The position numbers were made by a program, and so were the translations under genes. The notes below the pieces were generated by a model. The model saw nothing but the letters and a program-made list of their open reading frames with translations. It was not told where the DNA came from and searched no databases. A stretch of DNA of 55,322 nucleotides from a virus (lineage: Duplodnaviria; Caudoviricetes): positions 1-55,322 of the IMG/VR virus record IMGVR_UViG_3300037584_004943. One strand, 5' to 3'. Below are positions 1 through 28,894 of this stretch, piece by piece. Positions within the stretch are counted from its first letter, which is position 1. Every line of letters starts with the position of its first letter.

Positions 1-175
1 TAGCAAAACGTAGTGGAAACTTGTTCTCTGGCCCATACATTAAATGTATTGGTAGCTCGTATACGTGTGTACCATTTTTACGTTGACGCTCTGTTGTTAT
101 CTCTTTGATACCTAGTATCTTGAAGATAGTCATTGCCTCGCGGGCAGATCTAATTTCTGTTGACATGTATTCCAT
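1..175 (-). CDS. hypothetical early protein, partial (runs off window)
   Basis: ATG at 175-173; hand-translated open frame MEYMSTEIRSAREAMTIFKILGIKEITTERQRKNG... continues to the window edge. Confidence 0.7.
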   Translation of the reverse strand, partial: MEYMSTEIRSAREAMTIFKILGIKEITTERQRKNGTHVYELPIHLMYGPENKFPLRFA

Positions 176-197
176 ATTATTTAATTTACTTTATAAA

Positions 198-286
198 ACG
201 AGGTGGCCAAGTGAGTAAGAACAGTCAGGCTGGGGCCTCACCTGTTAGTTCCATTTTACTGAACACGTCTCACGCGCCACACTCGT
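198..286 (-). ncRNA. unclassified structured RNA element (three-way junction) in intergenic region
   Basis: Nested complementary pairs: 198-202/282-286, 203-207/276-280, 211-215/269-273, 220-224/242-246, 227-230/235-238, 248-251/261-264. GC-rich relative to flanks; begins 4 nt after the stop of 290..505. Confidence 0.6.
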
Positions 287-289
287 ATA

Positions 290-505
290 TTATTTAAGGC
301 AAGTGCCGTAACCTTTACGACTACCTGCTTTTATTAGTGCTGCAGATTGTGCTTGCGACACTATTTGTATTGTATTACCTGTTTTGTGATTAGTGAGTGG
401 AGCACAAGCAACACGCTCGATACCACTACAACTTACACAAGTTTTGTACCCGTATTTAATTCTTATTGGGTGTACGGGCTCACCACATTTACAATAATTA
501 TTCAT
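290..505 (-). CDS. small C4 zinc-finger protein (DksA/TraR-like finger)
   Basis: CKCGEPV...R...TCVSC pattern; repeated promoter motif directly upstream. Confidence 0.6.
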   Translation of the reverse strand: MNNYCKCGEPVHPIRIKYGYKTCVSCSGIERVACAPLTNHKTGNTIQIVSQAQSAALIKAGSRKGYGTCLK

Positions 506-537
506 ATTTAATAAGCTTTTGTCATATTATATTCAAT

Positions 538-570
538 TATATTATCCAAAAGTAATCGTATTTAATTTGT
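538..570 (-). promoter_or_regulatory. putative early promoter, copy 1 (minus strand ACAnAnTnnnTACGA-N7-TGGATAATA)
   Basis: One of six 33-bp copies with invariant spacing, each upstream of a minus-strand start codon. Confidence 0.75.
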
Positions 571-572
571 AT

Positions 573-956
573 TTATTTTACGTTTGGTTTTGAAATCCAT
601 ACTTGAAATACTTTTTCTGTCGCTACAAGTTTATAAGTTGTTGCAAAAGAATCTACAGTTTTACATTGTGTTGGATTATCTCCTTGCTTAGTGCATAACT
701 CTCTAGTGTCACCTACTTCATCACTCATATTTACCGTAACGCTTTTAGCTCCAGTGTATTTCACATAGTGATAGTTTTTATTGTGTTTACCAATATAAAA
801 ATACTCTAAGTCTTCATAATTCATATCTTCACAGTATAACACCATCTCGCTTCTACCAAATATACCTTTAGTTGTTACGTCAATTATTTCTGGTATTTGT
901 GCTTTAACCACATGATTACCTAGTAGTAATGCAACTGATAATGTTAATTTTTTCAT
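573..956 (-). CDS. secreted hypothetical protein
   Basis: Sec-type signal peptide MKKLTLSVALLLGNHVVKA|Q. Confidence 0.75.
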   Translation of the reverse strand: MKKLTLSVALLLGNHVVKAQIPEIIDVTTKGIFGRSEMVLYCEDMNYEDLEYFYIGKHNKNYHYVKYTGAKSVTVNMSDEVGDTRELCTKQGDNPTQCKTVDSFATTYKLVATEKVFQVWISKPNVK

Positions 957-957
957 A

Positions 958-1440
958 TTAGTATACCTCTGTTAATTTAATTTCTCTTTTATTATTAGTA
1001 GTTTCAACATAGAATTTAGCATTATACATGTTTTCATGTAACAAGTATACTGCTAGTTCGTCGTGACCGCTTAGTTGAGCGTGTATGTTACCTTTGATAA
1101 AAGAGCTCGCTATACCACTAATTTGGTTTTTAAGACTACTAAAACCTACGATTTTCTCACCGTTTAGCTCTGCGTAGAACTCAAAACTGTCATAGCGAAC
1201 GTCGTTTATTTCAGGTAAGTTAGCGATATTTACTACATAGGCAACGCCAAAGTTAACAGTCCAGCTAGTGTCGAGACCACTACAACTTGATATTGCACGA
1301 GTAGTTACGCTGTTGTCACTCATAATTTTTACATTACAAGCATTAATTAAGTCTTGCTCATACTGCTCTTGTCTACTTTCACAAGAGGTTAATGCGAGAG
1401 TAGTTGCTACTGCCATCGCTATAAATTTGTTATTCTTCAT
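958..1440 (-). CDS. putative lipoprotein
   Basis: MKNNKFIAMAVATTLALTS|C lipobox. Confidence 0.75.
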   Translation of the reverse strand: MKNNKFIAMAVATTLALTSCESRQEQYEQDLINACNVKIMSDNSVTTRAISSCSGLDTSWTVNFGVAYVVNIANLPEINDVRYDSFEFYAELNGEKIVGFSSLKNQISGIASSFIKGNIHAQLSGHDELAVYLLHENMYNAKFYVETTNNKREIKLTEVY

Positions 1441-1510
1441 AAATATGTCTTTTTAGTGCTACTAAATAATAGTAGATTAGTAAATATACCGCTAAATCTA
1501 TTGGTGTCAT
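1430..1510 (-). CDS. 26-aa hydrophobic microprotein (not in ORF track)
   Basis: MTPIDLAVYLLIYYYLVALKRHIYEE*; start coupled to the upstream stop (TAATG) and fills the intergenic gap exactly. Confidence 0.5.
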   Translation of the reverse strand: MTPIDLAVYLLIYYYLVALKRHIYEE

Positions 1511-1770
1511 TAGTTTTCGTTTTCAATTAATATAGTTCTATTTCTTACTGTAAATAGTATTTCATCTAAGTTTTCTAAGTAACTAATTCCAGTTTCAGTA
1601 TCTACTTCACCTGATTTTATATCCTCAGTAATCCACTCTATCATATCTTCAACAGTATTTATCACTTCTAAATGGTCTTCTCTTTCGATAATCACTTTTT
1701 CATCTTGTGCTTGAGCGAAACATATTCCGCTTAGTAATACACTTGCTACAGTTAATTTAATTTTATTCAT
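1510..1770 (-). CDS. secreted acidic hypothetical protein
   Basis: Signal peptide MNKIKLTVASVLLSGICFA|Q. Confidence 0.75.
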   Translation of the reverse strand: MNKIKLTVASVLLSGICFAQAQDEKVIIEREDHLEVINTVEDMIEWITEDIKSGEVDTETGISYLENLDEILFTVRNRTILIENEN

Positions 1771-1771
1771 A

Positions 1772-1945
1772 TTAGTAGTATTTATTTGCTTGTTCTTCGT
1801 TATACTTCTCTTCTAGTTTAGCAAACCACTTATCAAACTCAGCAAACTTATCATGCTCGTGCTTTACTTTAATCTTTTCTCGTGTTACCTTATTGTCTTT
1901 GTCAATAGATAAACTTATTCCATATTGTTCCCAAGTAAATTTCAT
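1772..1945 (-). CDS. hypothetical early protein (start uncertain; MKFTWEQ start preferred over 1999)
   Basis: ORF track 1772..1999; the internal ATG avoids overlap with 1962..2198. Confidence 0.6.
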   Translation of the reverse strand: MKFTWEQYGISLSIDKDNKVTREKIKVKHEHDKFAEFDKWFAKLEEKYNEEQANKYY

Positions 1946-1961
1946 ATTATTATTCTTTATT

Positions 1962-2198
1962 TTATTCCCAAGAGCGACCATGTTTACGGTCGTCTTCAAT
2001 TAGTTTTTGTACACATTTTCCCCATGACTCACGACTCTTATATCTCTTGTCTGCACTTGACATATATTCTTCAATATACTTATCTACTTCTTCCATAGTT
2101 TCTGCACCGAGAGATGTCCACTCGCCATACTTATCTGTCATCTCTACTCTGTATATTCCAGAGTCATATTGAGTTATTTCCACTGATTCTTTATTCAT
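1962..2198 (-). CDS. hypothetical early protein
   Basis: 78-aa ORF with AT-rich leader, co-oriented with neighbours. Confidence 0.7.
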   Translation of the reverse strand: MNKESVEITQYDSGIYRVEMTDKYGEWTSLGAETMEEVDKYIEEYMSSADKRYKSRESWGKCVQKLIEDDRKHGRSWE

Positions 2199-2209
2199 AA
2201 TTGTAATTT

Positions 2210-2252
2210 TAGTAGTGTGGGTGGAATCGAACCACCATTAACCGTTCACACT
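2210..2252 (-). ncRNA. tRNA-like minihelix (acceptor-like stem + T arm; no D or anticodon arm)
   Basis: Minus strand AGTGTG-AACGGTTAAT-GGTGG-TTCGATT-CCACC-CACACT-ACTA: 6-bp stem stacked on a 5-bp stem with a canonical T loop. Confidence 0.7.
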
Positions 2253-2482
2253 TAGTCTACTTGGCACTCTCTCGCCCAAGTCGGAATATTATTTGAGTTG
2301 GTATAATTACCATACTTTTGGAAACATTCCATTTCTTCTAGTTTCTCTTGATTTAAAGAGTAAACACCGTCGTGGTCATATTTAATGACGTCACCTTTTT
2401 TGTTAGTAAACTGAATCACTAATTCTTTACCAACCATTCCTTTTGAGACTACAAATCTCTTTTTTTCTACTACATTTGACAT
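2252..2482 (-). CDS. hypothetical early protein, paralog A (of 3630..3845)
   Basis: Shares KKRFV.SK and the identical block MECFQKYGNYTNSNN with 3630..3845. Confidence 0.85.
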   Translation of the reverse strand: MSNVVEKKRFVVSKGMVGKELVIQFTNKKGDVIKYDHDGVYSLNQEKLEEMECFQKYGNYTNSNNIPTWARECQVD

Positions 2483-2489
2483 AATTCTT

Positions 2490-2684
2490 TTATTTTAGTA
2501 AGTTAATTGTTTTAGTTAATATTTCTTCTTTTTCTACCATACTACAAGTATCATAACCGAACTCTGAGTATATTTCTTGAGCCAACAAGTCTTGTATTTT
2601 ATTCCAGTATGTTACCATTATATCTGTATCACCATATTGTTTCGCGTAGTTGTAATGGTATTTTAAGGTATTTAATTTAGTCAT
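2490..2684 (-). CDS. hypothetical early protein
   Basis: 64-aa ORF directly downstream of promoter copy 2. Confidence 0.7.
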   Translation of the reverse strand: MTKLNTLKYHYNYAKQYGDTDIMVTYWNKIQDLLAQEIYSEFGYDTCSMVEKEEILTKTINLLK

Positions 2685-2705
2685 AATTTATATATTTTTA
2701 TCAGT

Positions 2706-2738
2706 TATATTATCCAATTAGTATCGTATTTAATTTGT
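2706..2738 (-). promoter_or_regulatory. putative early promoter, copy 2
   Basis: Plus strand TATATTATCCA-attagta-TCGTATTTAATTTGT. Confidence 0.75.
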
Positions 2739-2968
2739 TATTTTGATGGAGTATATTGTCCGTCAAGGTATTTATTAAACGTAGTAATATCTTTGTTGAA
2801 TGACTTTAATTCTTCTAAGTCAATATAAGTATAACCTTTTAATGAGAATTGTTTTGACAATGGTATTTCTTGATAATAAGAAGGTAATTGATGTAATTGA
2901 AAAGGTATATAAGTTTTATTGTTTAGAGTAATAATGTTAAGTTGATTTGATTTAATAGAATTTGACAT
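2738..2968 (-). CDS. hypothetical early protein
   Basis: 76-aa ORF downstream of promoter copy 3. Confidence 0.7.
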   Translation of the reverse strand: MSNSIKSNQLNIITLNNKTYIPFQLHQLPSYYQEIPLSKQFSLKGYTYIDLEELKSFNKDITTFNKYLDGQYTPSK

Positions 2969-3013
2969 TGTTAATTAATTTTTAAGTTTATTATTATTTA
3001 TTTTAAGTTCAAT

Positions 3014-3046
3014 TATATTATCCAGTTTAAGTCGTATTTAGTCTGT
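3014..3046 (-). promoter_or_regulatory. putative early promoter, copy 3
   Basis: Plus strand TATATTATCCA-gtttaag-TCGTATTTAGTCTGT. Confidence 0.75.
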
Positions 3047-3169
3047 TTTTTTATTCTCATTTATTAATACTTTGTAAGGAGTACCGTTGTAAAAACGAAG
3101 TAATTGTTTTGAATTTAGTTTGTTTAATTTCTTGTCGAAACAAACTCTGTAAGTTTTATTTTTTTTCAT
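3038..3169 (-). CDS. 43-aa basic microprotein (not in ORF track)
   Basis: Hand translation MKKNKTYRVCFDKKLNKLNSKQLLRFYNGTPYKVLINENKKTD*. Confidence 0.5.
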   Translation of the reverse strand: MKKNKTYRVCFDKKLNKLNSKQLLRFYNGTPYKVLINENKKTD

Positions 3170-3180
3170 AAGAATATTTT

Positions 3181-3306
3181 TTAATTGTTTAATAAATAGG
3201 TTATATCATCTAGAGTAGTTTCCATATATTTCTCTCGACATTCATTCTTATTATATTTGAATATATTTTTTAATAAGAATTGAAGAATTTTAATTTTTAA
3301 GGTCAT
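3181..3306 (-). CDS. 41-aa microprotein (not in ORF track)
   Basis: Hand translation MTLKIKILQFLLKNIFKYNKNECREKYMETTLDDITYLLNN*; ATG 25 nt downstream of promoter copy 4. Confidence 0.55.
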   Translation of the reverse strand: MTLKIKILQFLLKNIFKYNKNECREKYMETTLDDITYLLNN

Positions 3307-3330
3307 AATTTATTATTTATTAGATTCATA

Positions 3331-3363
3331 TATATTATCCAACGAGTATCGTATTTAGTTTGT
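3331..3363 (-). promoter_or_regulatory. putative early promoter, copy 4
   Basis: Plus strand TATATTATCCA-acgagta-TCGTATTTAGTTTGT. Confidence 0.75.
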
Positions 3364-3401
3364 ATGTAAAAGTAGGTAAATCGTTTAGTGAATAGAAATC
3401 G

Positions 3402-3512
3402 TTAGGAGTTACTACTCTCATTCTCTTGTTCTATAACGAATTTTTCCATAAAGTAACAAATTGTACCAGTAATTGTAAGAATAGTAATAATTTCTAAAAT
3501 GTATAATAACAT
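3402..3512 (-). CDS. 36-aa single-TM microprotein (not in ORF track)
   Basis: Hand translation MLLYILEIITILTITGTICYFMEKFVIEQENESSNS*; AT-rich leader like neighbours. Confidence 0.55.
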   Translation of the reverse strand: MLLYILEIITILTITGTICYFMEKFVIEQENESSNS

Positions 3513-3526
3513 ATAATTTAATTTAG

Positions 3527-3573
3527 TGTGACATTAGGTAGTTAAGTAAAGAATAGTAATACCCTTTTGTCAC
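3527..3573. repeat. 47-bp element bounded by inverted repeat GTGACA/TGTCAC, copy 1
   Basis: TGTGACATTAG....TTAAG...TAGTA..ACCCTT.TGTCAC; second copy at 4170-4215. Confidence 0.75.
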
Positions 3574-3579
3574 TGTTTT

Positions 3580-3629
3580 GTAATAGACTACCGAAGTAGT
3601 TTCGACTATTGAAGTCTCATCAGTATTAC
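3580..3629 (-). ncRNA. type I hammerhead ribozyme
   Basis: Minus strand GUAAUA-CUGAUGA-GACU(UCAAU)AGUC-GAAA-CUAC(UUCG)GUAG-UC-UAUUAC: complete conserved core, three perfect stems, GUC cleavage triplet. Confidence 0.92.
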
Positions 3630-3845
3630 TTATGAAAGTCGAGCCCACACAGGTAAGTTATTACTGTTAGTGTAGTTACCGTATTTCTGGAAACACTCCA
3701 TAGTTTCAAGTTTCTCTTGATTGATTGAGTATACATCGTCATGATTGTAAGTGAATGTACCTTTTTTAGTTGTGAATGTAATTTCTACATTTTGTCCGAT
3801 TAGAGATTTTGAGATAACGAATCTTTTCTTTGTCAATTTAGTCAT
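3630..3845 (-). CDS. hypothetical early protein, paralog B (of 2252..2482)
   Basis: See paralog A; downstream of promoter copy 5. Confidence 0.85.
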   Translation of the reverse strand: MTKLTKKRFVISKSLIGQNVEITFTTKKGTFTYNHDDVYSINQEKLETMECFQKYGNYTNSNNLPVWARLS

Positions 3846-3878
3846 AATAATTTAATTTAGTTTAATAGTTTATTTGTA

Positions 3879-3911
3879 TATATTATCCAATGTTAGTCGT
3901 ATTTATATTGT
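3879..3911 (-). promoter_or_regulatory. putative early promoter, copy 5
   Basis: Plus strand TATATTATCCA-atgttag-TCGTATTTATATTGT. Confidence 0.75.
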
Positions 3912-3998
3912 GAATAATATTGTTAGTTGTATTGTTATTGTAATAAGTTGTAGTATTATTGTATTTGTTTTATTGTATGTATTATTTGAATTTCTCAT
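3903..3998 (-). CDS. 31-aa hydrophobic microprotein (shortened from track ORF 3903..4154)
   Basis: MRNSNNTYNKTNTIILQLITITIQLTILFTI*; ATG just downstream of promoter copy 6. Confidence 0.45.
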   Translation of the reverse strand: MRNSNNTYNKTNTIILQLITITIQLTILFTI

Positions 3999-4004
3999 TA
4001 CATA

Positions 4005-4037
4005 GTTATTATCCAATACATATCGTACTAAGTTTGT
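4005..4037 (-). promoter_or_regulatory. putative early promoter, copy 6
   Basis: Plus strand GTTATTATCCA-atacata-TCGTACTAAGTTTGT. Confidence 0.7.
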
Positions 4038-4169
4038 AAAAACGTAGAAAAATACAGAAAATCGGTAAAATATGTGGCGGGCTGGTGAAATAATATTGAT
4101 TTTTGTATATGGCTGGGTATCAGGTAGGTAGGGGGCTACACAAAATATATACATTTATAACAATTTTTT

Positions 4170-4215
4170 TGTGACATTAGCCTATTAAGAAGTATTAGTA
4201 GCACCCTTGTGTCAC
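4170..4215. repeat. 46-bp element bounded by inverted repeat GTGACA/TGTCAC, copy 2
   Basis: TGTGACATTAGcctaTTAAGaagtatTAGTAgcACCCTTgTGTCAC. Confidence 0.75.
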
Positions 4216-4253
4216 GCTTTTAATATATTAACTATACGAGTAATAATATCTAT

Positions 4254-4499
4254 ATGGCACAGAAACTATCACCAGAAGCTGCTAAAGCTAAAGCCAAGAG
4301 AGATCTTGAGTATGCTAAGTCTCCTAAGCGTAAGCTAAGGAAGGCTCAGAATCAAGTAAAGCGTCGTGCTTTAAAAAAGAAAGGTTTTAGCTTATCTAAT
4401 AAAGACGTGCATCACTGTCCTGAGTCTGGTAAATTAACATTGGTGTCGGTAGCTAGTAATAGAGGTAATTTCGGTAACGGTACTAAAAACGAAGGATAA
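4254..4499 (+). CDS. small basic HNH-like protein
   Basis: KDVHH...SNRG motif typical of minimal phage HNH proteins. Confidence 0.55.
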   Translation: MAQKLSPEAAKAKAKRDLEYAKSPKRKLRKAQNQVKRRALKKKGFSLSNKDVHHCPESGKLTLVSVASNRGNFGNGTKNEG

Positions 4500-4867
4500 T
4501 GGCATACGTACAAAAAAATAATCCGTTTCCAGTTACTAGCTGTGGTAGACGTAGAGCTGGTGGTATAGGTAGTGGCTTTTTAAAAGCTGAACCACGTAGG
4601 ACTATTGGAAGAGGTAAAAACTTTAATCCAGTATCAAAAGATAAGAGTGCTACAGGTGGCGCAGCAGGTGGTGGTATGACTGAGAAAGGTGTTACAGAAT
4701 ACAAGCTTAAGAATCCTGGTAGTAAGTTACAAACCGCAGTGACAACACCTCCTTCTAAGCTTAAACCTGGTAGTAAAGCTGCTAAACGTAGAAAATCATT
4801 CTGCGCTAGATCTAAAAACTGGAAAAGTGAAAGAGGTTTAGCTGCTAGACGTAGATGGAATTGTTAA
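4499..4867 (+). CDS. small basic phage protein (RRKSFCAR...RRWNC, DUF6321-like)
   Basis: Motif recognised from phage small basic proteins; N-terminus MAYVQKNNPF. Confidence 0.7.
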   Translation: MAYVQKNNPFPVTSCGRRRAGGIGSGFLKAEPRRTIGRGKNFNPVSKDKSATGGAAGGGMTEKGVTEYKLKNPGSKLQTAVTTPPSKLKPGSKAAKRRKSFCARSKNWKSERGLAARRRWNC

Positions 4868-4884
4868 TACACATATATTAAGAC

Positions 4885-5139
4885 ATGGCGTTCAAAATGA
4901 AATATAAAAACCTTGAAGAGGTTGTAAAAGAATTAAAAGGTGCTGTTAAGGCTCATGCTAGACAAGCTAGTGTTGTAGAAGGCCATATTAAAGACATGCG
5001 TAAGTCTTCGCCTAAAAAAGGTAAGATTAGTGCTAGTTGTAAAGCTCAAGCTAAAAAGAAATTTAAAGTTTGGCCTAGCGCGTACGCTTCTGGTTGGGGT
5101 GTTAGATGTACTCGCGGTGATTTTAAGAAAAAAAAGTAA
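4885..5139 (+). CDS. small basic phage protein (MAFKMK N-terminus; WPSAYA motif)
   Basis: ORF track; Lys-rich. Confidence 0.75.
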   Translation: MAFKMKYKNLEEVVKELKGAVKAHARQASVVEGHIKDMRKSSPKKGKISASCKAQAKKKFKVWPSAYASGWGVRCTRGDFKKKK

Positions 5140-5414
5140 TGGCTTTTGAACAATTAAATAATCCGTTTAAGAAAGTAAAAGGTGGTGGTACTAGAAAAGT
5201 ATGCCTACCCGCAGCTAAAGTTCGTAGCATGTCAAAAGAAGAGCGTCAGAAAGTTGTCAACGCTAAAAAAGCTGCTGCTTCAAAAGGTAAATACAAGAGA
5301 TCAAGCAAAAGTAATGTAAAAGGTGCTCGTAAGAAAGGCGCTACGCTTAGAGATTGGTTCCAAAAAGAAAACTGGGTGCAAGTTGGTAATCCTAGTAAAA
5401 AGTGCGGCGAATAA
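5139..5414 (+). CDS. small basic phage protein (CLP..K and LRDWF.E.W motifs)
   Basis: ORF track; TAATG coupling; N-terminus MAFEQLNNPF. Confidence 0.75.
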   Translation: MAFEQLNNPFKKVKGGGTRKVCLPAAKVRSMSKEERQKVVNAKKAAASKGKYKRSSKSNVKGARKKGATLRDWFQKENWVQVGNPSKKCGE

Positions 5415-5448
5415 GTAATAGTATAAACATCGATAAATAAATAAAGAT

Positions 5449-5736
5449 ATGGCATTTAAAATGTATGGCAAATCGCCAATGATGAAAGCTTTAATTGGAA
5501 AGCAAAAAAATTTACCAGAAGAGTTAAAAGCTAAAATTCTAGCTGCTCCAGATGATTCACCTAAAAAAATGTATGGTAAGTCACCTAAGAAAAAATATAA
5601 GTCAGATGCTCAACGCAAAGCGGTGCACGCTAGTAAAGCTGAGTCTGGAATGAAAAATTATATGAACCCAGAAGAGTACAAGGTTTTCAACATGGGTAAT
5701 ACACCTAAGAAAATGTACGGTAAAAAGAAAAAATAA
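5449..5736 (+). CDS. basic protein with KMYGK and SPKK repeats (putative DNA-binding internal protein)
   Basis: KMYGK x3; SPKK x2 and TPKK. Confidence 0.75.
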   Translation: MAFKMYGKSPMMKALIGKQKNLPEELKAKILAAPDDSPKKMYGKSPKKKYKSDAQRKAVHASKAESGMKNYMNPEEYKVFNMGNTPKKMYGKKKK

Positions 5737-5739
5737 GAT

Positions 5740-6126
5740 ATGGCATTCAAGATGAAAGGTTTCTCTGGTTTTAAAAATAAAGACGGAGATAAAGTAAAAG
5801 TAACTGAGGCAGAATTAACAAAGCCTCGTGGATACGACCCTAGTAAAACAGGTGAGGAAAAGTATCCAGAAGTAAAAACTGTAACAGAAAAATCTCTTAA
5901 GCCTGGTTGGACACAAAAAGGCAATAACTACTTTTTTAAAGGCGATCTTGTTTCTAACCCTAACATGAGTGATGTTTTCTCAAGAAAACCAGTTAAAGCA
6001 TTACACAGAGGTGGTGAGGGTGTGTCAAGTAAAGACAGAGAGCGTTTAGGAGGAGCTGGCAGTCCAAAAGCAAACTACATGAAAGGCTATGCTAAGCCAG
6101 GAAGTAAGAAAAGAAAGAAAAAATAA
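5740..6126 (+). CDS. basic protein with MAFKMKGFSGFK N-terminus
   Basis: ORF track. Confidence 0.75.
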   Translation: MAFKMKGFSGFKNKDGDKVKVTEAELTKPRGYDPSKTGEEKYPEVKTVTEKSLKPGWTQKGNNYFFKGDLVSNPNMSDVFSRKPVKALHRGGEGVSSKDRERLGGAGSPKANYMKGYAKPGSKKRKKK

Positions 6127-22579: not shown

Positions 22580-25500
22580 ATGCCTGAGTTGAAAAGAAAT
22601 TTCCTTAAAGGTCGCATGAACAAAGACCTTGACGAGCGTCTTATATCCAATGGCGAATATAGAGATGCATTAAATATTCAAGTATCTACATCAGAAGGTT
22701 CCAACGTCGGAACTGCTCAAAACGTAAAAGGTAACCTAAAGGTAGGAGTTGATGCTGGATTTTCAGCTCAAGCAAATGTTGTTAGGCTAGGCGTTCCAGC
22801 AGCTCTTGGTTTAAGTGATTTTGAAGCTGTATCTTTATCTGGATTTGAAACACAACTTAGAAATATAGACAGCGCTAACACTGTTGGTTCTTTCAAACAT
22901 CAAACAACTGGTAAGGTTTACAACTTCGTAAACAACGCTGTTGACTTATATACTAGTAATAATATATCTCCTGGGGAAGCTGCTGCTTCGTTAACGCCTT
23001 ATGGATACGATAACGACATGAGTCCAGAATCAACATACTCAGGTACTGGAACTAGAAAAGAAGGTATACGATATGACGCTATATTTGAATATACTCCTTC
23101 TGTAAATGATGACGAAGGCACGTATAAAACAATATTTAGAGATGTTTATGAAGTTAGATTCGCTCCTCAAAATACAGCATATTTTACCTTAAACGCAGCT
23201 GGCGTAGCAACAGATGTTATTGTAAAAGCTCCAATGCACCTTGGTGCAACTGAAGAACTTGCCACTGACAACATTATAAGTGGTTTTCCAACAGAAACAT
23301 GTACAGATGAAAACGGCAATACTTATGTTAAGGCTCTTGGAGTAAAAAAAGGTATGAGGGCTAAGTGTATAGGTCCTAATGGAGATGATCTATGGGGCTT
23401 TTCTGAGGTTAGAGTAACAGACGTTCCTCTACTAAATTCTTTTTACTTTGAAGGTAGAGGCGCAGTTATTATAACTTCTTTATCTAACGAAGTTCACTAT
23501 AATACAGAAATTAGAAACGCTGGGTACGTCATTCAATTTACATCTGACAGGGTTTTAAATTTTGAATCTGGAAATAAAGAAGTAGAAACAAATACTACAG
23601 CTCAAAATTCTACGTTTACTCCTAAGAACAAGATAATAACAGGTATAAACATAATAGATGATTTATTATTTTTCACAGACGGTAGAACAGAGCCGAAAAA
23701 AATAAATATAAAAAGATCTTTAGAAGGAACTGACCAAAAAAAATATTCTCACACTAGATTAGAGAAAAGTATTTATTCAACACCAGTTTCAGAAGAGCAT
23801 GTTACCGTAATCAAAAAGAATCCCACAACACCACCCCTTGTAGAATTAAAAAATACAATTACAAGATCAGGGGATGTTTACATGGAAGCTAACAATGGTA
23901 TATACGACGGTGAAAGCGTTGGTACCAATGGTAACGTTAATGCTTTAGCTTATTACTCTGAAGCAACAACATCTATAGTAAGATCTTACACTGGAAATAA
24001 TTCAGATTCTTTAGACTTCGTGGGAGGCTTACTTGCTTTTGTAAAAGCTAACGGTGACCCAAACCAGCCTGGCGACCAAAAATATATATATTTAGACGAA
24101 GGTAATGTTCACTGGAGGCCTAATGATGAAATAAAGCTTACCGGGCTTACCACTGGATCTGTTGTTACTGTTAGAATTAGGTTAAACGCAAACGGTACCG
24201 CTAGAAGGTGGAGCGAAGGAGGGATTTTTCGTAGAATGAATGTAGAGGTTGTAGCAAACGATCCTAACACTGTTTTCAATCAACAAGGAGAAATATGGTT
24301 TGGAGAGTTAGCCGACAGTTCTAGTAAGAACTTTTACGATGAAAAGTTTGTCTCTTTTGCATATAGATATAAATATATAGATGGAGAAATTTCTTGTATA
24401 TCTCCATATTCTACGCCAGCTTTCTTACCAGGTAGATATTCGTACAATTCTCTTCAGGCTGCTAACGAGGGTATGGAGAATAATATAGACTCTATAGTTT
24501 TGAAAAACTTCGTACCTTCTAATATTTCTGAAAACGTACAAGAAATACAATTATTGTATAGAGATCACGAGTTTGATACTACACACATATTCAAAACCGT
24601 TGAAAAAGGAGAGTATGATTTTACATATAGTTCCTATGACTCAGAAGGAAATTATTCTCCTCAAGCAAAAGGTTGTATTACTATAAATACAGAACTATTT
24701 GGTCAGATGATACCGGTGTTGCAGTTAGACAGAATATTTGATGATGTTCCTATAAGCGCTAGAGCTCAAGAGTTTTCTGCTGGTAGGTTGATGTTTGGAA
24801 ACTATATTAAAGATTACAACATAACAAATCCTTTTGGAGAAAAAATACAACCTAGTTTAAATTATACTTTAGGCACTAATGAGTTTCAAACTTTAGATAT
24901 TAGTTACTCTAAAACAGGGTTTTTAAAATCTAACGCTACTGAACACCGAGGTAATGTGTTAAATGAGTTTGATGACAGTGGTGATCCTGTAATACGAAAT
25001 TATCAGTCTTTAGAGGGTAGCACTTTAAAAGGTCTTATTGACACAGATATGGGTGGCACAGCCGCAAACGGTGAAGGATTAATAAGCAATCATAAAATAG
25101 GTGGTGGTTTAGAAAGAATACCTAATATACTTGTAAATAGTATTCCTGAACTAAATGATGACAATAGCGATACTACTTCTAGTGATGGTAAACCAACAAA
25201 AGCTCATTGGCCAATAGGAACTTGGAGTGAAGCTCCTAATCAAGGTGATTTAGATTTTGGAAGTGGTCACTATCCTGAAATAAACGGTTTATTAAACAAC
25301 GAGGCTATTTTAATAGATAAAAATGATATAAGAGCTAACTACGATTTAAAAGACCAGCTTGATAATGGTAGTAGCTGGTATAACCAAGCCGTGAATATAA
25401 TTGAGGGTGTAAACGACTTTAACAACCCAAAGTGGTGGGGAAGATGGAAGTTTAAAATAAACTTTAGCGATGAGCTTATTGACGCTGGAAATATTTTTTC

Positions 25501-28500
25501 TACTAATGTTATAACGCCTGAGGGTGTTGAAGAAGTAGACTTTGATTCTACTTGTGACATATCAACTTCTATGGCTAAGCTAGATACTACTGGAACTTGG
25601 AAGATAAGAACACATTGTAGCTTTAAGTGTAGTAGAGCGTTAGCCGATTATTTCCCAGGCGATGGGACCAATCATTCCAGATGGGGAATTTTTAAAGAAC
25701 ATCCGGCTAGACTAGCTATTTACAGATGTGACGACAATGGAGTGCCATTTGGATTACCTTTAGCTTATTCTGCTTGGAACACGGCTGGAGGTAGAACCAA
25801 TCAAATGGGTGACATAAATGATCCTAAAGTAGAGTACAACATGCCTTTCAGCGGGCAAGGAGCCGCAGGTCAAGTTAATACACAGACAGACTTTGAAGGT
25901 AATGAAAGTAATATAACATATAGTGGAATTTTAAACAACGAAGGAACTTCATATTCAACTGCAAATAAAGCTTTTAGAGGTCTTTACTTAGAAGCAGATA
26001 TAATTTGCCAAGAGGCAGATGATATAACTCAACAAAATGTAATTGCTAAAAACACTAATATATGTGTTTGTATGGAAGTTGAGCCAATAGGTTATTCTTA
26101 TTTTGAAGGATCAGTTGGTGATTGGACAAATCCTTGGAATGGCGTTGATGATTTTTTATCTGGTCTTGATACAATTGTTTGCGGCGAGGGACTAGAAAAC
26201 CAACCTATAGTATTCTGTAGTATTAATGATACTTCTGAAGGAGAAGGATTCGGTGCTTATGTTAATAGTAATATTCCTAACGATTTTGAAATACCAGAAG
26301 GAACTTATAAATATATAAAAGGTAACGCTAGGTTTAGAATAATACAATCACCTTTATCCGATGTCGAAGTTTCAGCTACCCCAGCTAAACCTTCTGTAAA
26401 ATCTAATAGATCTTACCAAGTAGGATATGCTTACATAGACAAGTACGGTAGAGAGTCTTCTATATTAGTAGATGAAGACTCTTTCATAAGCATACCTAAT
26501 AGTAATTCTAAAAACTTCAACGCTATAGGCGTTAATATAACTTCTGAATTTCCTATTTGGGCTAAATACTACAAGTATTATATTAGAGAGATAACTGATA
26601 GATTTTATAACGTAGCTGTACATAAAATGTACGACAACAATGATGCTGGTGGTAGTGTATTTGCTTGGCTTAGTTTTAACAGCGCTGAGATAAACAAAAT
26701 ACAACTAAACGATAAACTTTTAGTAAAGAAAAAACACGGATCTAATGAGTTTTTAAATGAAAGAGTTGTTACTAGGGTTGTAGATATTTCTAACCAAGTT
26801 CCTGTGGGTAGTGATGGAACTGACATTTTTGACGCTGTAGATGGTGTAGCTGAATCTATAAATGAAGCTGATCAAGTTGGTAAGTTTTTTGTTAAGGTTA
26901 AACTTTCAACAGCGTTAAAAAACGCGTTAGTACCCGATAGCGTAGACTTAGATACTGATGAGGATGGCAGTATAAATGAAGAGTTTTTTGCATATATGCA
27001 AGATACCTTAAACACTATATCTGGTGCTGTTGTAGAAGTGTTACCAAAGTCTACAAAAATAGAAACTGAGCAAGATGAACTTTTTGGATTTTTCTACGAG
27101 GCATCTCAAGCATATCCAATTAGATTAAACGGTTCAGAAGCGGAAACTTATATACCTATAGGTAGCACAATATCTTTAAGTATCCCTGGACAATTGACAT
27201 ACGGAGCTAGTGTACACGCTACGGTACAAGCGTTTAACTCTGAAAAAAATATTGTTAAGAGAGTAGTAGGAGCTTTAACTAATGGAGTGATAGATGAGTT
27301 GCAAGGCAACGAAGATGCCTCTTGTAAAGTTTTACATGCGTCTAACACTTTAGATGGTTTACAAAGTTTAAGTGCAGTTCCTATAATAGCTATTTTCACA
27401 AGACCAGATGGCAGCTCTGTAAGAGCGCTTCTTTCTTCCGGTGTATCACAATCGAACGAATTAAAACTTCAAACCCTTACACATGGCCAAAAACACGTTT
27501 TGTCTTGGAACAACTGCTACGCTTTTGGAAATGGCGTTGAGTCAGATTCTATACTAGACGTTTTTAACGAAACAACTCTTTATAAATACACACCTATAGG
27601 CAAGCAAAGTGGATTTAAAACTGCATTAGTTGAAGATGAATATAAAAGAGAACATAAATCTAATGATATAATATTTTCGCAACTATATAACGAAAACAGA
27701 GGCGTTGATGGTACTAATCAGTTTATAGCAGCAGACAACCCTATTAAAAAATTAGCTCCAGCACATGGTAGTATTCAAAAGCTTTTTGCTAGAGACAATG
27801 ACTTGCTAGCTCTTTGTGAAAATAAAATATTAAGAATACTTAGCTCTGGTAAAGACGCTCTATTTAATGCTGATGGTAACATGCAGGTTTTAGCTACCGC
27901 TAATGTTCTTGGGCAAGCTATACCTTTTGTTGGGGACTATGGTATATCTAAAAACCCAGAATCATTCGCAGCTGATGAATATAGATGTTATTTTACAGAT
28001 AGAGATAGAGGCGCTGTGTTAAGATTATCAAGAGATGGTCTAACACCTATCAACTTAGCTGGTATGAAGGATTGGTTTGCTGATAATTTAAAGCATGCAG
28101 ACGTTGCCATTGGTAGCTTTGATGGTAAAAAAGATGAATACAATATTAGCATTCATTCTTCCTACGCTCCTAATAGTAAGAAAGATGTATACACATTAAG
28201 TTTTAACGAAGGTATTGATGGTTGGGTAAGCTTTAAGTCTTTTATACAAGAGTCTGGATGTAGCTTAAACAATAAATACTACACTTTTAAAAATGGTGGT
28301 ATTTATTTACATCATCCAGAAGATTTAGCAACCGATGTTAATAGAAATTTATTCTATAGCAGCGCTAGGGGTACAACAAGCGGAACGCACGCTATTCAAG
28401 GTAACTCTACAGTAACACCAATAATTAATGATTCTCCAGATACAGTAAAGTCTTTTAAAACGTTAAATTATGAAGGATCGCAAGCAAAGATAATATTAGC

Positions 28501-28894
28501 TAATGCTGATTTAGATGGGCTTGGTAACGACAATGTTAACTACTTTGATAATTATCAAGATGATGCAGTGTCTAACGGGTGGTACGTAGAAAGTATTACT
28601 ACAGATCTTCAAGATGGCCAAGTAACAGAGTTTATTAAAAAAGAAAACAAGTGGTTCAACTACATACAAGGTACGGAATCTACGTTTACCAACAACGCTG
28701 ATTCTTTAGGAGCCGGCGCTAGTGGAACTTTAGATTTTGCAGAGTTTTCTACCCAAGGTGTTGGTACAATATCATCTATAATGACTATTAGTGGAACAAT
28801 GGCTGAAGGTTTTGATTTAATAATAAACTCAGCAGAAGGAGATGGTTGGTCGACAGATGGTTTAGCAATATCAAACATTACTGAAATAACATAA
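22580..28894 (+). CDS. tail nozzle/stabilisation protein (large, with insertions)
   Basis: F..G.MNKDLDER...GEYRDALN N-terminus; LFFTD..TEP.KIN; FAYRYKY.DGE.S; YGIS.NPESF; GWVSF. Confidence 0.75.
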   Translation: MPELKRNFLKGRMNKDLDERLISNGEYRDALNIQVSTSEGSNVGTAQNVKGNLKVGVDAGFSAQANVVRLGVPAALGLSDFEAVSLSGFETQLRNIDSANTVGSFKHQTTGKVYNFVNNAVDLYTSNNISPGEAAASLTPYGYDNDMSPESTYSGTGTRKEGIRYDAIFEYTPSVNDDEGTYKTIFRDVYEVRFAPQNTAYFTLNAAGVATDVIVKAPMHLGATEELATDNIISGFPTETCTDENGNTYVKALGVKKGMRAKCIGPNGDDLWGFSEVRVTDVPLLNSFYFEGRGAVIITSLSNEVHYNTEIRNAGYVIQFTSDRVLNFESGNKEVETNTTAQNSTFTPKNKIITGINIIDDLLFFTDGRTEPKKINIKRSLEGTDQKKYSHTRLEKSIYSTPVSEEHVTVIKKNPTTPPLVELKNTITRSGDVYMEANNGIYDGESVGTNGNVNALAYYSEATTSIVRSYTGNNSDSLDFVGGLLAFVKANGDPNQPGDQKYIYLDEGNVHWRPNDEIKLTGLTTGSVVTVRIRLNANGTARRWSEGGIFRRMNVEVVANDPNTVFNQQGEIWFGELADSSSKNFYDEKFVSFAYRYKYIDGEISCISPYSTPAFLPGRYSYNSLQAANEGMENNIDSIVLKNFVPSNISENVQEIQLLYRDHEFDTTHIFKTVEKGEYDFTYSSYDSEGNYSPQAKGCITINTELFGQMIPVLQLDRIFDDVPISARAQEFSAGRLMFGNYIKDYNITNPFGEKIQPSLNYTLGTNEFQTLDISYSKTGFLKSNATEHRGNVLNEFDDSGDPVIRNYQSLEGSTLKGLIDTDMGGTAANGEGLISNHKIGGGLERIPNILVNSIPELNDDNSDTTSSDGKPTKAHWPIGTWSEAPNQGDLDFGSGHYPEINGLLNNEAILIDKNDIRANYDLKDQLDNGSSWYNQAVNIIEGVNDFNNPKWWGRWKFKINFSDELIDAGNIFSTNVITPEGVEEVDFDSTCDISTSMAKLDTTGTWKIRTHCSFKCSRALADYFPGDGTNHSRWGIFKEHPARLAIYRCDDNGVPFGLPLAYSAWNTAGGRTNQMGDINDPKVEYNMPFSGQGAAGQVNTQTDFEGNESNITYSGILNNEGTSYSTANKAFRGLYLEADIICQEADDITQQNVIAKNTNICVCMEVEPIGYSYFEGSVGDWTNPWNGVDDFLSGLDTIVCGEGLENQPIVFCSINDTSEGEGFGAYVNSNIPNDFEIPEGTYKYIKGNARFRIIQSPLSDVEVSATPAKPSVKSNRSYQVGYAYIDKYGRESSILVDEDSFISIPNSNSKNFNAIGVNITSEFPIWAKYYKYYIREITDRFYNVAVHKMYDNNDAGGSVFAWLSFNSAEINKIQLNDKLLVKKKHGSNEFLNERVVTRVVDISNQVPVGSDGTDIFDAVDGVAESINEADQVGKFFVKVKLSTALKNALVPDSVDLDTDEDGSINEEFFAYMQDTLNTISGAVVEVLPKSTKIETEQDELFGFFYEASQAYPIRLNGSEAETYIPIGSTISLSIPGQLTYGASVHATVQAFNSEKNIVKRVVGALTNGVIDELQGNEDASCKVLHASNTLDGLQSLSAVPIIAIFTRPDGSSVRALLSSGVSQSNELKLQTLTHGQKHVLSWNNCYAFGNGVESDSILDVFNETTLYKYTPIGKQSGFKTALVEDEYKREHKSNDIIFSQLYNENRGVDGTNQFIAADNPIKKLAPAHGSIQKLFARDNDLLALCENKILRILSSGKDALFNADGNMQVLATANVLGQAIPFVGDYGISKNPESFAADEYRCYFTDRDRGAVLRLSRDGLTPINLAGMKDWFADNLKHADVAIGSFDGKKDEYNISIHSSYAPNSKKDVYTLSFNEGIDGWVSFKSFIQESGCSLNNKYYTFKNGGIYLHHPEDLATDVNRNLFYSSARGTTSGTHAIQGNSTVTPIINDSPDTVKSFKTLNYEGSQAKIILANADLDGLGNDNVNYFDNYQDDAVSNGWYVESITTDLQDGQVTEFIKKENKWFNYIQGTESTFTNNADSLGAGASGTLDFAEFSTQGVGTISSIMTISGTMAEGFDLIINSAEGDGWSTDGLAISNITEIT

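Follow-up and report, generated by a model that had tools for sequence, protein, structure and literature searches.

Can one phage lineage mix several unrelated devices for cutting RNA or forming RNA ends at one kind of site? To our knowledge, this has not been asked before. The question is raised by a stretch of 55,322 nucleotides (the window; IMG/VR record IMGVR_UViG_3300037584_004943) from an uncultured marine phage with a terminase that distantly resembles those of Flavobacteriia podophages. A leftward block of small genes in this window carries three structured RNA elements directly behind three of the genes: a hammerhead motif, a mimic of the top half of a tRNA, and a structured RNA without an Rfam match, here called element 3 (E3). 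These positions and identities agree with a preliminary description made from the letters alone, and all cassettes lie on the same strand as the genes. Together with roughly 60 related metagenomic contigs, the window forms a compact natural set for the question; it contains a minimal hammerhead whose stem I may include the stop codon ahead of it, a well-defined 40-nt mimic family with optional displayed hairpins, and an apparently new RNA family built around 30 invariant core nucleotides. The features concerned are the following.

4171..4215, no strand assigned: the second palindrome of the GTGACA...TGTCAC type, heading the leftward block
3879..3904, minus strand: promoter-like repeat AAATACGAY-N6-TGGATAATATA, from a motif scan
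3331-3356, 3014-3039, 2706-2731 and 538-563, minus strand: further copies of the promoter-like repeat, from the same kind of scan
3630..3845, minus strand: paralog A, a small protein of 71 aa with its stop codon at 3632-3630 (ORF list)
3580..3629, minus strand: type-I hammerhead motif, from sequence and covariation, with a candidate cleavage site between 3586 and 3585
3528..3573, no strand assigned: near-palindrome GTGACA-N34-TGTCAC, directly after the hammerhead (fold z = -2.2)
2252..2482, minus strand: paralog B, 76 aa; its stop codon (2254-2252) runs into the tRNA mimic by one base, the first to be paired
2210..2252, minus strand: tRNA top-half mimic, with acceptor 2252-2247 paired to 2219-2214, linker 2246-2237, T-arm 2236-2220 and tail 2213-2210
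290..505, minus strand: small Cys-rich protein (CxC...CxxC) of 71 aa with its stop codon at 292-290 (ORF list)
198..286, minus strand: E3, 89 nt, with closing stems ACGAG/CUCGU and GUGGC/GCCAC followed by UUUU

The genes at 2252..2482 and 3630..3845 had been proposed to be paralogs, and their products are indeed 65% identical. The promoter-like repeat has five matches, on the minus strand only, and none in each of 100 shuffles; together with the position of the genes, these repeats suggest that the block is expressed early. No terminator-like sites were called on the minus strand of positions 1-4400. With five promoter-like repeats in 3.4 kb, many of the genes may not need segmentation.

Under lenient criteria, a hammerhead-like motif arises by chance in 5/300 and a tRNA-like motif in 12/300 random windows of equal length (first-order Markov), so that the motifs alone are suggestive and not decisive. 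Single-sequence folding is also weak for these two small elements (hammerhead and tRNA mimic; z = -1.39 and -1.74). Comparison with related phage contigs decides the matter: conservation and compensatory changes there establish the three as genuine structured RNA cassettes, each unrelated to the others, on the sense strand of this gene block.

The hammerhead (3629-3580, minus strand) starts 0 nt past the TAA stop codon of ORF 3630..3845 and reads GUAAUA-CUGAUGA-GACU/UCAAU/AGUC-GAAA-CUAC/UUCG/GUAG-UC-UAUUAC. In a scan of both strands it is the sole hammerhead motif in the window. The core pattern of CUGANGA, GAA, an A15.1-U16.1 pair and H at position 17 is present as CUGAUGA ... GAAA ... UC, and it is surrounded by three covarying helices, of which stem I is open. 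The catalytic core is intact in 8/8 distinct hammerheads. In an alignment of seven distinct relatives with 15 pairs, pairing is kept in 98.1% of 105 cells, and compensatory change is seen at 6/15 pairs, with a covariation score reached by 0/500 shuffles; the two unpaired cells are a U-U mismatch (L012_HHb) and a long, misaligned stem III insert (L007). Judged by its letters, the element is a complete type-I motif and is predicted to cleave itself. Rfam scores lie below threshold, with 23.2 bits for RF03152 (gathering 56.3) and, for a near-identical copy in L024, 25.9 bits for RF00163 (gathering 34). The minimum free energy structure of the stretch, from single-sequence folding, does not form stem I. 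This stem is an uninterrupted, plain 6-bp helix with flanks that are not conserved, and no partner in loop II, of the kind whose tertiary contact fast cleavage at low Mg2+ requires, is seen by eye, so cleavage at cellular Mg2+ could be slow.

Each of the eight distinct hammerheads adjoins either a stop codon or another element placed behind one, two of them behind genes of other families. In seven, stem I stands at 1 to -4 nt from the stop, and it may include the preceding ORF's stop codon; the eighth (L024) follows a composite element and is found 32 nt past the nearest stop detected.

The tRNA mimic (2252-2210, minus strand) is joined even more closely to its gene, with the last A of the stop codon of ORF 2252..2482 serving as its first paired base. 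It consists of a 6-bp acceptor (AGUGUG/CACACU), the linker AACGGUUAAU, the T-arm GGUGG-UUCGAUU-CCACC and the tail ACUA. A true tRNA gene is rejected at this place, as there is no D-stem or anticodon arm and 10 nt separate acceptor and T-arm; ARAGORN reports 0 genes here, and the Rfam tRNA model has no hit, whether at the gathering score or with E relaxed to 10. The mimic does have the acceptor-like helix and 5-bp T-stem with GGTTCRANYCC loop that define a t-element (6 + 5 bp, with GGUUCGAUUCC). Its family is marked by a D-loop remnant AAYGGUU, the T-arm GGUUCGAUUCC and an A-CUA tail. The GG of the AAYGGUU linker, predicted to make the elbow contact, is invariant in 13/13 minimal forms, as are the T-loop and tail. 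Among these 13 distinct forms, 137/137 cells are paired and 8/11 pairs are compensatory, and the covariance model R1, which scores the window's copy at 71 bits, gives 196/196 cells and 9/11 pairs over 19 distinct matches; these counts are biased upward because script and model both selected for pairing. RNAalifold, unaided, predicts the identical two helices. In types B and C of the mimic a hairpin is inserted at the place of the anticodon arm, and the window's minimal form is without any displayed hairpin. Relatives also hold a real tRNA-Arg in the same region; of six distinct tRNA-Arg(UCU) genes, two end in A-CUA like the mimic and four in A-CAA.

E3 begins 3 nt past the stop codon of ORF 290..505 and folds with a minimum free energy of -33.3 kcal/mol (z = -2.64; 4/200 shuffles fold as well). 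Two invariant core halves (277-263 and 220-206) enclose a variable two-hairpin domain (262-221). The E3 family comprises 29 distinct versions with three closing scaffolds and an identical split core, GCGCGUGAG-RY-GUGU ... UCUUACUCACUUGGC, around variable hairpins; in 21/29 the variable domain begins with a core-adjacent helix of at least 4 bp. The core is 100% identical across scaffolds, while flanking proteins fall to 75% identity. Rfam gives no match to E3 at gathering and nothing relevant at E up to 10 (positions 1-4300, and 180-300 alone); related forms from sets of 20 and 10 loci are unmatched as well. In S1 forms the closing stems are followed by at least four U in 20/20, and S3 forms are without a U-tract. 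The consensus terminator scan does not call E3, whose stem closes 69-132 nt instead of a short loop. In L049, L053, L057 and L058 a tRNA mimic follows E3 with no promoter motif between them. The suggestion that this third element might be a ribozyme finds no sign in its favor, given the lack of an Rfam match, the invariant helix, and the closing stem with U-tracts in most forms.

How constant is the arrangement behind the paralogs? Across 61 distinct combinations of homolog and downstream sequence, the first element past the stop is the GTGACA palindrome in 22, a tRNA mimic in 15, a hammerhead in 8 and none of these in 16. A structured element is therefore found in 45/61, bearing out the expectation that homologs carry one, and its commonest form, the palindrome, was not listed in the preliminary description. 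At least 11 changes of element type on the protein tree of the homologs indicate that the slot behind the stop is variable. The idea of a swappable slot thus holds insofar as different elements are hosted, but not for a direct replacement of a hammerhead by a tRNA mimic at one orthologous slot, which is not seen; each paralog clade keeps its own element type. Nor are the elements tied to this gene family, as had been supposed, since cassettes (tRNA mimics and E3 forms included) also occur behind other genes and in tandem arrays, or are absent. The gene preceding E3 has 0 to 5 tandem modules behind it in 14 loci, and arrays reach four or five modules with no ORF between. In L044, L059 and L060, E3 is absent and the same two genes are adjacent, and in near relatives the 50-nt hammerhead is cleanly present or absent between stop codon and palindrome. 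In some relatives the cassettes lie just ahead of the next promoter-like motif, and in MW202828.1 before an apparent stem plus T-run (by eye), so they may be terminal rather than between cistrons. A composite element of L012/L024 is chimeric.

The reading that we prefer, with a probability of about 0.45, is that these are optional cassettes which define RNA ends on a gene strand where no terminator-like sites are called. While sequences, structures, covariation and the presence or absence of elements between relatives are shown directly, what we infer here concerns transcription, every cleavage and any effect on expression. The phage clade sets cassettes flush against stop codons, and it gains, loses and recombines them between close relatives. 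The three come from a larger pool, which comprises hammerheads, tRNA top-half mimics of several types, E3 forms and other closed stem-loop modules. The hammerhead would cut itself after C3586 and stay on the upstream RNA, leaving the upstream mRNA with a folded 3' end and a 2',3'-cyclic phosphate and the downstream RNA with a 5'-OH. The tRNA mimic would present a stack of acceptor and T-arm, elbow bases and an A-CUA tail like that of the phages' own tRNA-Arg genes; given these features, host RNase P and RNase Z should cut both ends, and the cuts would free a small stable RNA. An RNase P cut would remove all or part of the paralog B stop codon, which is awkward for a stabilizing role. E3, with its G+C-rich stem and U-tract, would probably be a 3'-end structure or a recognition site for a protein or RNase, and not a ribozyme.

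Alternatively, the cassettes may be mainly genes for small trans-acting RNAs, in which tRNA-like and E3 scaffolds stabilize variable hairpins and present them, one conceivable use being as decoys for RNA-binding or tRNA-directed factors of the host. With the mRNAs as mere carriers, any cutting would serve only to free the small RNAs. This is doubtful, but several observations suit it: the hairpins of mimic types B and C, the free exchange of hairpins around the invariant E3 core, the tandem arrays, two tRNA-like elements that end a gene block in MW202828.1, and a hairpin, CCYCGGCGUAAGCAAAGG, common to an E3 scaffold (L004) and tRNA-like scaffolds (L001, L002, L058). It is less easily reconciled with the window's bare minimal mimic or with the tight stop-codon overlap, which suggests a tie to the upstream mRNA. 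Hammerheads do not fit known trans-acting RNAs either, and we know of none that acts as one.

In T4-type phages, promoter and stem-loop elements mediate the shuffling of small gene cassettes. Selfish or linker sequences of this sort, serving recombination or their own spread with little role in RNA processing, would account for the clean gain or loss of hammerhead and E3, for an E3 core that is more constant than its flanking proteins, and for chimeric elements such as the L012/L024 composite. The strand indifference of folding energy in E3 S1 forms, where the sense strand folds better in 13/20 and no better in 7/20, would also be expected. We consider this explanation quite unlikely, as the covariation of the helices extends to G-U pairs, which can form only in the sense-strand RNA, and this points to selection on the RNA fold; moreover, unsystematic inspection turned up neither terminal repeats nor target duplications, and no nuclease or transposase associated with them. 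It would be a long shot for the split E3 core to form the catalytic site of a self-cleaving ribozyme not yet described, or to be recognized by a dedicated endoribonuclease of phage or host; the clade would then have at least three exchangeable RNA-end cassettes with different mechanisms, with tRNA-like and E3 scaffolds doubling as hairpin displays (decoy or regulatory RNAs released from early transcripts). Very improbable is that the elements are decayed, functionless remnants (a dead minimal hammerhead, a pseudo-tRNA that could derive from a tRNA-Arg such as relatives carry in this region, a terminator hairpin with junk inserts), for although Rfam scores are sub-threshold and 2-4% of random windows satisfy the lenient motifs, decay would not preserve an invariant D-loop GG, T-loop and tail, and the hammerhead cores stay intact, as do the mimic pairings across divergent phages.

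Optional cassettes that define RNA ends would have partial counterparts elsewhere. In the early transcript of T7, RNase III makes the segments at irregular intergenic hairpins, and each upstream mRNA retains a 3' hairpin that protects it. The irregular hairpins of E3 and the GTGACA palindrome likewise lie at gene ends, with RNase III cutting hypothetical here; their sequences are unrelated to the T7 sites, which also lack the invariant core and the exchangeable apical domains of E3. Published work already describes hammerheads beside phage genes: for those of prophages, Perreault et al. (2011; PMC3088659) propose that they divide long phage transcripts into mRNAs of gene length. The window's motif shares their catalytic core, three-stem layout and intergenic place in phage DNA. 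It differs from those described there in being minimal: its open stem I is a plain helix of 6 bp, a contact of this stem with loop II is not visible, and its Rfam score falls below threshold. It is also single rather than paired around a gene, and its stem I can hold the preceding stop codon.

Plant mitochondrial t-elements, found through GGTTCRANYCC, direct RNase P and RNase Z cuts that make mRNA 5' and 3' ends, some inside a reading frame, and release a stable small RNA, as stated by Forner et al. (2007; PMC1920247). The mimic is similarly tRNA-like, has this T-loop motif and adjoins an mRNA. Compared with these elements, it belongs to a phage and not an organelle, its cleavage is only predicted, and it has a defined and far more compact layout, consisting of a 6-bp acceptor, the remnant of a D-loop and a T-arm and lacking D-stem and anticodon arm, within a family that has optional inserted hairpins. 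Theta (HDV-like) ribozymes are reported (PMC10879173) to adjoin phage tRNAs, and they also combine small self-cleaving ribozymes with tRNA-type elements for RNA end formation in phage genomes. They are of another class and follow real tRNAs in gut phages, whereas the hammerhead and mimic are separate cassettes behind protein genes. Set beside these systems, the tRNA mimic and the E3 family look new. If the cuts are real, the cassettes would be a bacterial-virus counterpart of the transcript punctuation by tRNAs and t-elements in mitochondria, and would supply compact, portable parts for RNA processing. Should the hairpins displayed by the scaffolds prove functional, this would point to small RNAs so far unrecognised in the conflict between marine phages and their hosts.

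Among the proteins encoded ahead of the cassettes, paralog A has 43 related loci in IMG/VR, and an AlphaFold model of the paralog family, built on paralog B, reaches a pLDDT of 93.7; a search with this model found no fold match. For the Cys-rich protein at 290..505, which has 17 related loci, no Pfam family was found, and the nearest named Atlas cluster, zf-dskA_traR (0.87), serves as a lead only.

Three minus-strand genes near the left end of the window are each followed by a structured RNA cassette: a hammerhead behind paralog A (ORF 3630..3845), a tRNA mimic behind paralog B (ORF 2252..2482) and a third element, E3, behind a Cys-rich gene (ORF 290..505). These cassettes most likely act in cis on the transcript. 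They lie among about 20 small minus-strand ORFs spread across positions 4250 to 1. The window, 55 kb of phage DNA with a G+C content of 35%, also encodes a large terminase, portal, structural protein, GroEL, ribonucleotide reductase and MazG. Its terminase is 63.5% identical to that of an uncultured freshwater podovirus record and 31-45% identical to those of phages of Flavobacterium, Cellulophaga and Tenacibaculum. The 150-3900 stretch is contained in 20 sequencing runs from 10 studies, all of DNA (marine, seawater and estuary metagenomes).

Features of the leftward gene block
3629-3580, minus strand: hammerhead, GUAAUA CUGAUGA GACU-UCAAU-AGUC GAAA CUAC-UUCG-GUAG UC UAUUAC
2252-2210, minus strand: tRNA mimic, AGUGUG, AACGGUUAAU, GGUGG-UUCGAUU-CCACC, CACACU, ACUA
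286-198, minus strand: E3, 89 nt, MFE -33.3 kcal/mol, z = -2.64
3528-3573 and 4171-4215: near-palindrome of ~46 bp, (T)GTGACA-NN-AGSCY...-TGTCAC(A), two copies
538-563, 2706-2731, 3014-3039, 3331-3356 and 3879-3904, minus strand: promoter-like repeat AAATACGAY-N6-TGGATAATATA, five copies ahead of small ORFs

The preliminary description placed a hammerhead directly behind paralog A, and relatives bear this out. The element begins right behind the stop codon of its gene, contains a complete core with stem I open (type I) and has a predicted cleavage site after C3586; a motif scan found no second hammerhead in the window. Rfam scores are low: 23.2 bits to the RAGATH-1 hammerhead model (gathering score 56.3) on positions 1-4300 with E up to 10, and 25.9 bits, versus 34 for type I, for a near-identical copy in a relative. 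Across 10 relative loci (E up to 5), Rfam gave weak hammerhead matches and chance hits. Under lenient criteria such a motif also occurs in 5 of 300 random windows. The element is nevertheless genuine, because the relatives decide. All eight distinct versions in the fetched loci have an intact core, and an alignment of seven of them is paired in 98.1% of 105 cells, with compensatory changes in 6 of 15 pairs, spread over all three stems. The covariation score was reached by none of 500 shuffles, and pairing dropped to 14-47% once partners were slid. Stem I abuts or includes the preceding stop codon in seven of the eight versions (distance 1 to -4 nt). It is a plain 6-bp helix without a visible loop II partner, and the single-sequence MFE structure of the stretch lacks it, features that count against fast catalysis. 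The kind of hammerhead is already known, and this copy adds one member.

A tRNA-like element had also been proposed at paralog B, correctly so. It joins an acceptor/T-arm stack and a T-loop to a linker resembling a stemless D-loop (AAYGGUU), whose GG is invariant. A tRNA gene at this position was ruled out by tRNA-gene and Rfam searches, and the window holds none. Thirteen distinct minimal forms occur in relatives, together with mimics carrying an inserted hairpin at the anticodon-arm place (type B) and a type-C form with two inserted hairpins. The minimal forms are paired in 137/137 cells with compensatory changes in 8/11 pairs, and the set from a covariance-model search of 62 sources (399,839 bases; 22 hits, 19 distinct) in 196/196 cells with 9/11 pairs compensatory, percentages that are inflated because script and model both select for pairing. 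The search criteria also pick out 12 of 300 random windows. Support independent of this selection comes from the slot behind the paralog B clade, reached via the protein, which shows GUGUG/CACAC, GUGUA/UACAC and AUGUA/UACAU, and from RNAalifold, which predicts the same helices.

Real tRNA-Arg(UCU) genes were found by ARAGORN in the same region of 6 of 31 loci scanned (L027, L032, L033, L034, L041 and L043). Six distinct tRNA-Arg(UCU) sequences from relatives have the tail A-CUA in two cases and A-CAA in four. Rfam at gathering on 20 loci returned four real tRNAs and nothing else. The sequence CUGACGAG in type-C mimics was considered as a hammerhead core and rejected, as no GAAA follows it; its own fold is a small hairpin, UACU-GACG-AGUA, with AACU/AGUU as the covarying form. 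Neither one Elemovirus record nor Cellulophaga phages phi18:3 and phi40:1 yielded a convincing mimic with R1, the covariance model of the element. The top match there (23 bits, phi40:1) comprises, by eye, a T-arm and 3′ acceptor strand alone. This minus-strand stretch at 26802-26836 ends in ...CUCCA-CUAA, has no visible matching 5′ strand and looks similar to a tmRNA 3′ end. MW202828.1, a deposited relative, has two tRNA-like elements behind a small zinc-ribbon gene, in an unannotated stretch; they precede what appears by eye to be a stem plus T-run. Immediately upstream of a tRNA mimic in L011 (about 3235-3285), and also in L012, L016 and L041, lies a conserved hairpin CCAGUUAGUU...CUGGUAAAUCAAAUAUGAAC without an Rfam match. 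Pairing between its loop and the 3′ tail is possible and covaries (GUGUU/AACAC versus ACUUGUU/AACAAGU), making the hairpin a candidate pseudoknotted motif.

E3 had been read as an unknown structured RNA, and it has no Rfam counterpart. Rfam gave no match on the whole window at gathering, one chance snoRNA match besides the hammerhead on 1-4300 (E up to 10), and two chance matches on the wrong strand on 180-300 alone. Related contigs contain 29 distinct versions, all with an identical split core, GCGCGUGAG-RY-GUGU ... UCUUACUCACUUGGC, enclosing a variable domain of 23-86 nt that opens with a helix of at least 4 bp adjoining the core in 21 of 29. Three scaffolds close the element. The window's form, S1, uses ACGAG-Y-GUGGC / GCCAC-CUCGU followed by at least four U in 20/20; S2 contains a second domain; and S3 closes with CCACGAA/UUCGUGG and a long hairpin, without the U-tract. 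The core helix GUGAG/CUCAC shows no variation, which argues for sequence recognition rather than a ribozyme helix. Folding energy favors the sense strand in 13 of 20 forms, no clear strand preference. E3 is absent from deposited phage genomes (blastn, 50,697 records). Mimicry of a host RNA was rejected: a scan of 185,579 prokaryote genomes for the E3 core pattern gave a single instance, in a metagenome bin (63-kb contig).

The two paralogs, described as such beforehand, share 65% identity and belong to a family with members in 43 IMG/VR loci, mostly two per locus. Downstream sequence was long enough for 70 of the 73 copies, which yield 61 distinct protein/downstream combinations. Within 150 nt past the stop codon, the element met first is the palindrome GTGACA-N28-42-TGTCAC in 22, a tRNA mimic in 15 and a hammerhead in 8. 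The expectation that homologs carry such elements thus held for 45 of 61; the other 16 have none of the three (a promoter-like motif alone in 6, other in 10). On a maximum-likelihood protein tree (76 columns, many open forks), element labels track clades yet require at least 11 changes (hammerhead 2, tRNA mimic 4, palindrome 8; shuffled mean 32), so the slot has been refilled repeatedly. No exchange of hammerhead for tRNA mimic was seen at an orthologous slot among the 61 combinations, however, and each window paralog falls in a clade keeping its own element. The cassettes are not specific to this gene family, and other genes carry them too: hammerheads follow the paralog family in 5/8 versions, a composite element behind that family in 1/8 and other genes in 2/8. 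The palindrome, with 120 distinct versions in fetched loci (both orientations counted), often lies 1-5 nt past a stop codon; it may act as an inverted repeat that binds protein, as an RNase III-type hairpin or as a phage-specific terminator. Downstream of the paralog in L014, L029, L030 and L035, at least two direct repeats of GTGTATAGCA lie right upstream of a promoter-like motif and may form an operator.

Tandem arrays occur behind the Cys-rich gene, where 14 loci carry from zero (L044, L059, L060) to five (L058) closed stem-loop modules. In L049, L053, L057 and L058, E3 is followed by a type-C tRNA mimic. Further modules lie between the Cys-rich gene and E3, namely M1 AAAGUAGG...CCUACUUU, M2 GUCAGG...CCUGAC and M3 AAAGAGAG...CUCUCUUU; they occur in L046, L049, L050, L052, L053, L056, L057 and L058, downstream of 1713 (1340 in L050; 1707 in L056 and L058), and have sub-hairpins in common, such as CCGCAACCCGG-N-CACCGGAAAUCGG.

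Protein clues are sparse. No Pfam family is credible for the paralog protein (four weak matches below threshold, E 0.027-0.089), and Atlas gave no usable match; a neighboring ORF has one Pfam match (E 0.00096). The family's fold model (pLDDT 93.7) has no PDB match at E ≤ 0.001 and no known fold relative; a likeness to archaeal tRNA-splicing endonuclease was rejected, the several PDB matches being insignificant (E 1.5-7). As a weak lead, the Cys-rich protein may be related to DksA/TraR-type zinc fingers.

Action in cis fits several features: all copies are oriented on the sense strand, helices covary, catalytic and recognition bases are intact, the cassettes sit at stop codons, and no terminator-like site was called on the gene strand (a consensus scan of 1-4400 called three, all on the plus strand). 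After hammerhead cleavage the upstream mRNA would carry a folded 3′ end, and E3 may provide a stable 3′ structure or recognition site. RNase P and RNase Z would cleave at both borders of the tRNA mimic, by analogy with plant mitochondrial t-elements, where such cuts were shown (PMC1920247), and cutting of long phage RNAs was proposed earlier for hammerheads flanking prophage genes (PMC3088659). Simple segmentation of the transcript is weakened as a model, since an RNase P cut would cost paralog B its stop codon and since cassettes in some relatives are terminal or stand shortly ahead of the following promoter-like motif. As the main rival reading, small trans-acting RNAs that display variable hairpins would be released from the scaffolds; a hairpin of one E3 (L004) is found again inside type-C tRNA mimics. 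Less favored, the conserved cassettes would be recombination linkers or selfish inserts.

Overall, the cassettes extend a known theme, in which phage and organelle transcripts are processed or punctuated, and add one RNA family of unknown function. Neither E3 nor a phage family of acceptor/D-loop/T-arm mimics located behind protein genes was found described in the open-access literature. An IMG/VR catalogue of structured RNA candidates mentions only generic tRNA-like ones in its text, and its supplements may already list the motifs described here (PMC10690425).

All five copies of the promoter-like repeat are on the minus strand, and the motif appeared in none of 100 shuffles; from position, we infer that they are phage promoters and that the leftward block is early. 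The repeat, which we take to be unlike the usual Bacteroidota -33/-7 promoter, may be read by a phage-specific polymerase or factor. Related motifs are also present in relatives. An 83-aa ORF at 3903-4154(-) lies in an A+T-rich, repetitive stretch that separates the upper palindrome from the first promoter-like motif; it may be non-coding. On the plus strand, 4254-6126 carries consecutive small ORFs very rich in lysine, of which several begin MAFKM or MAF and look, from their translations, like a tandem paralog family. The structural block contains two giant plus-strand ORFs, 22580-28894 (2104 aa) and 35200-43140 (2646 aa), without a Pfam family at E up to 0.001; by analogy with N4-like or crAss-like phages, one of them could be a virion RNA polymerase.
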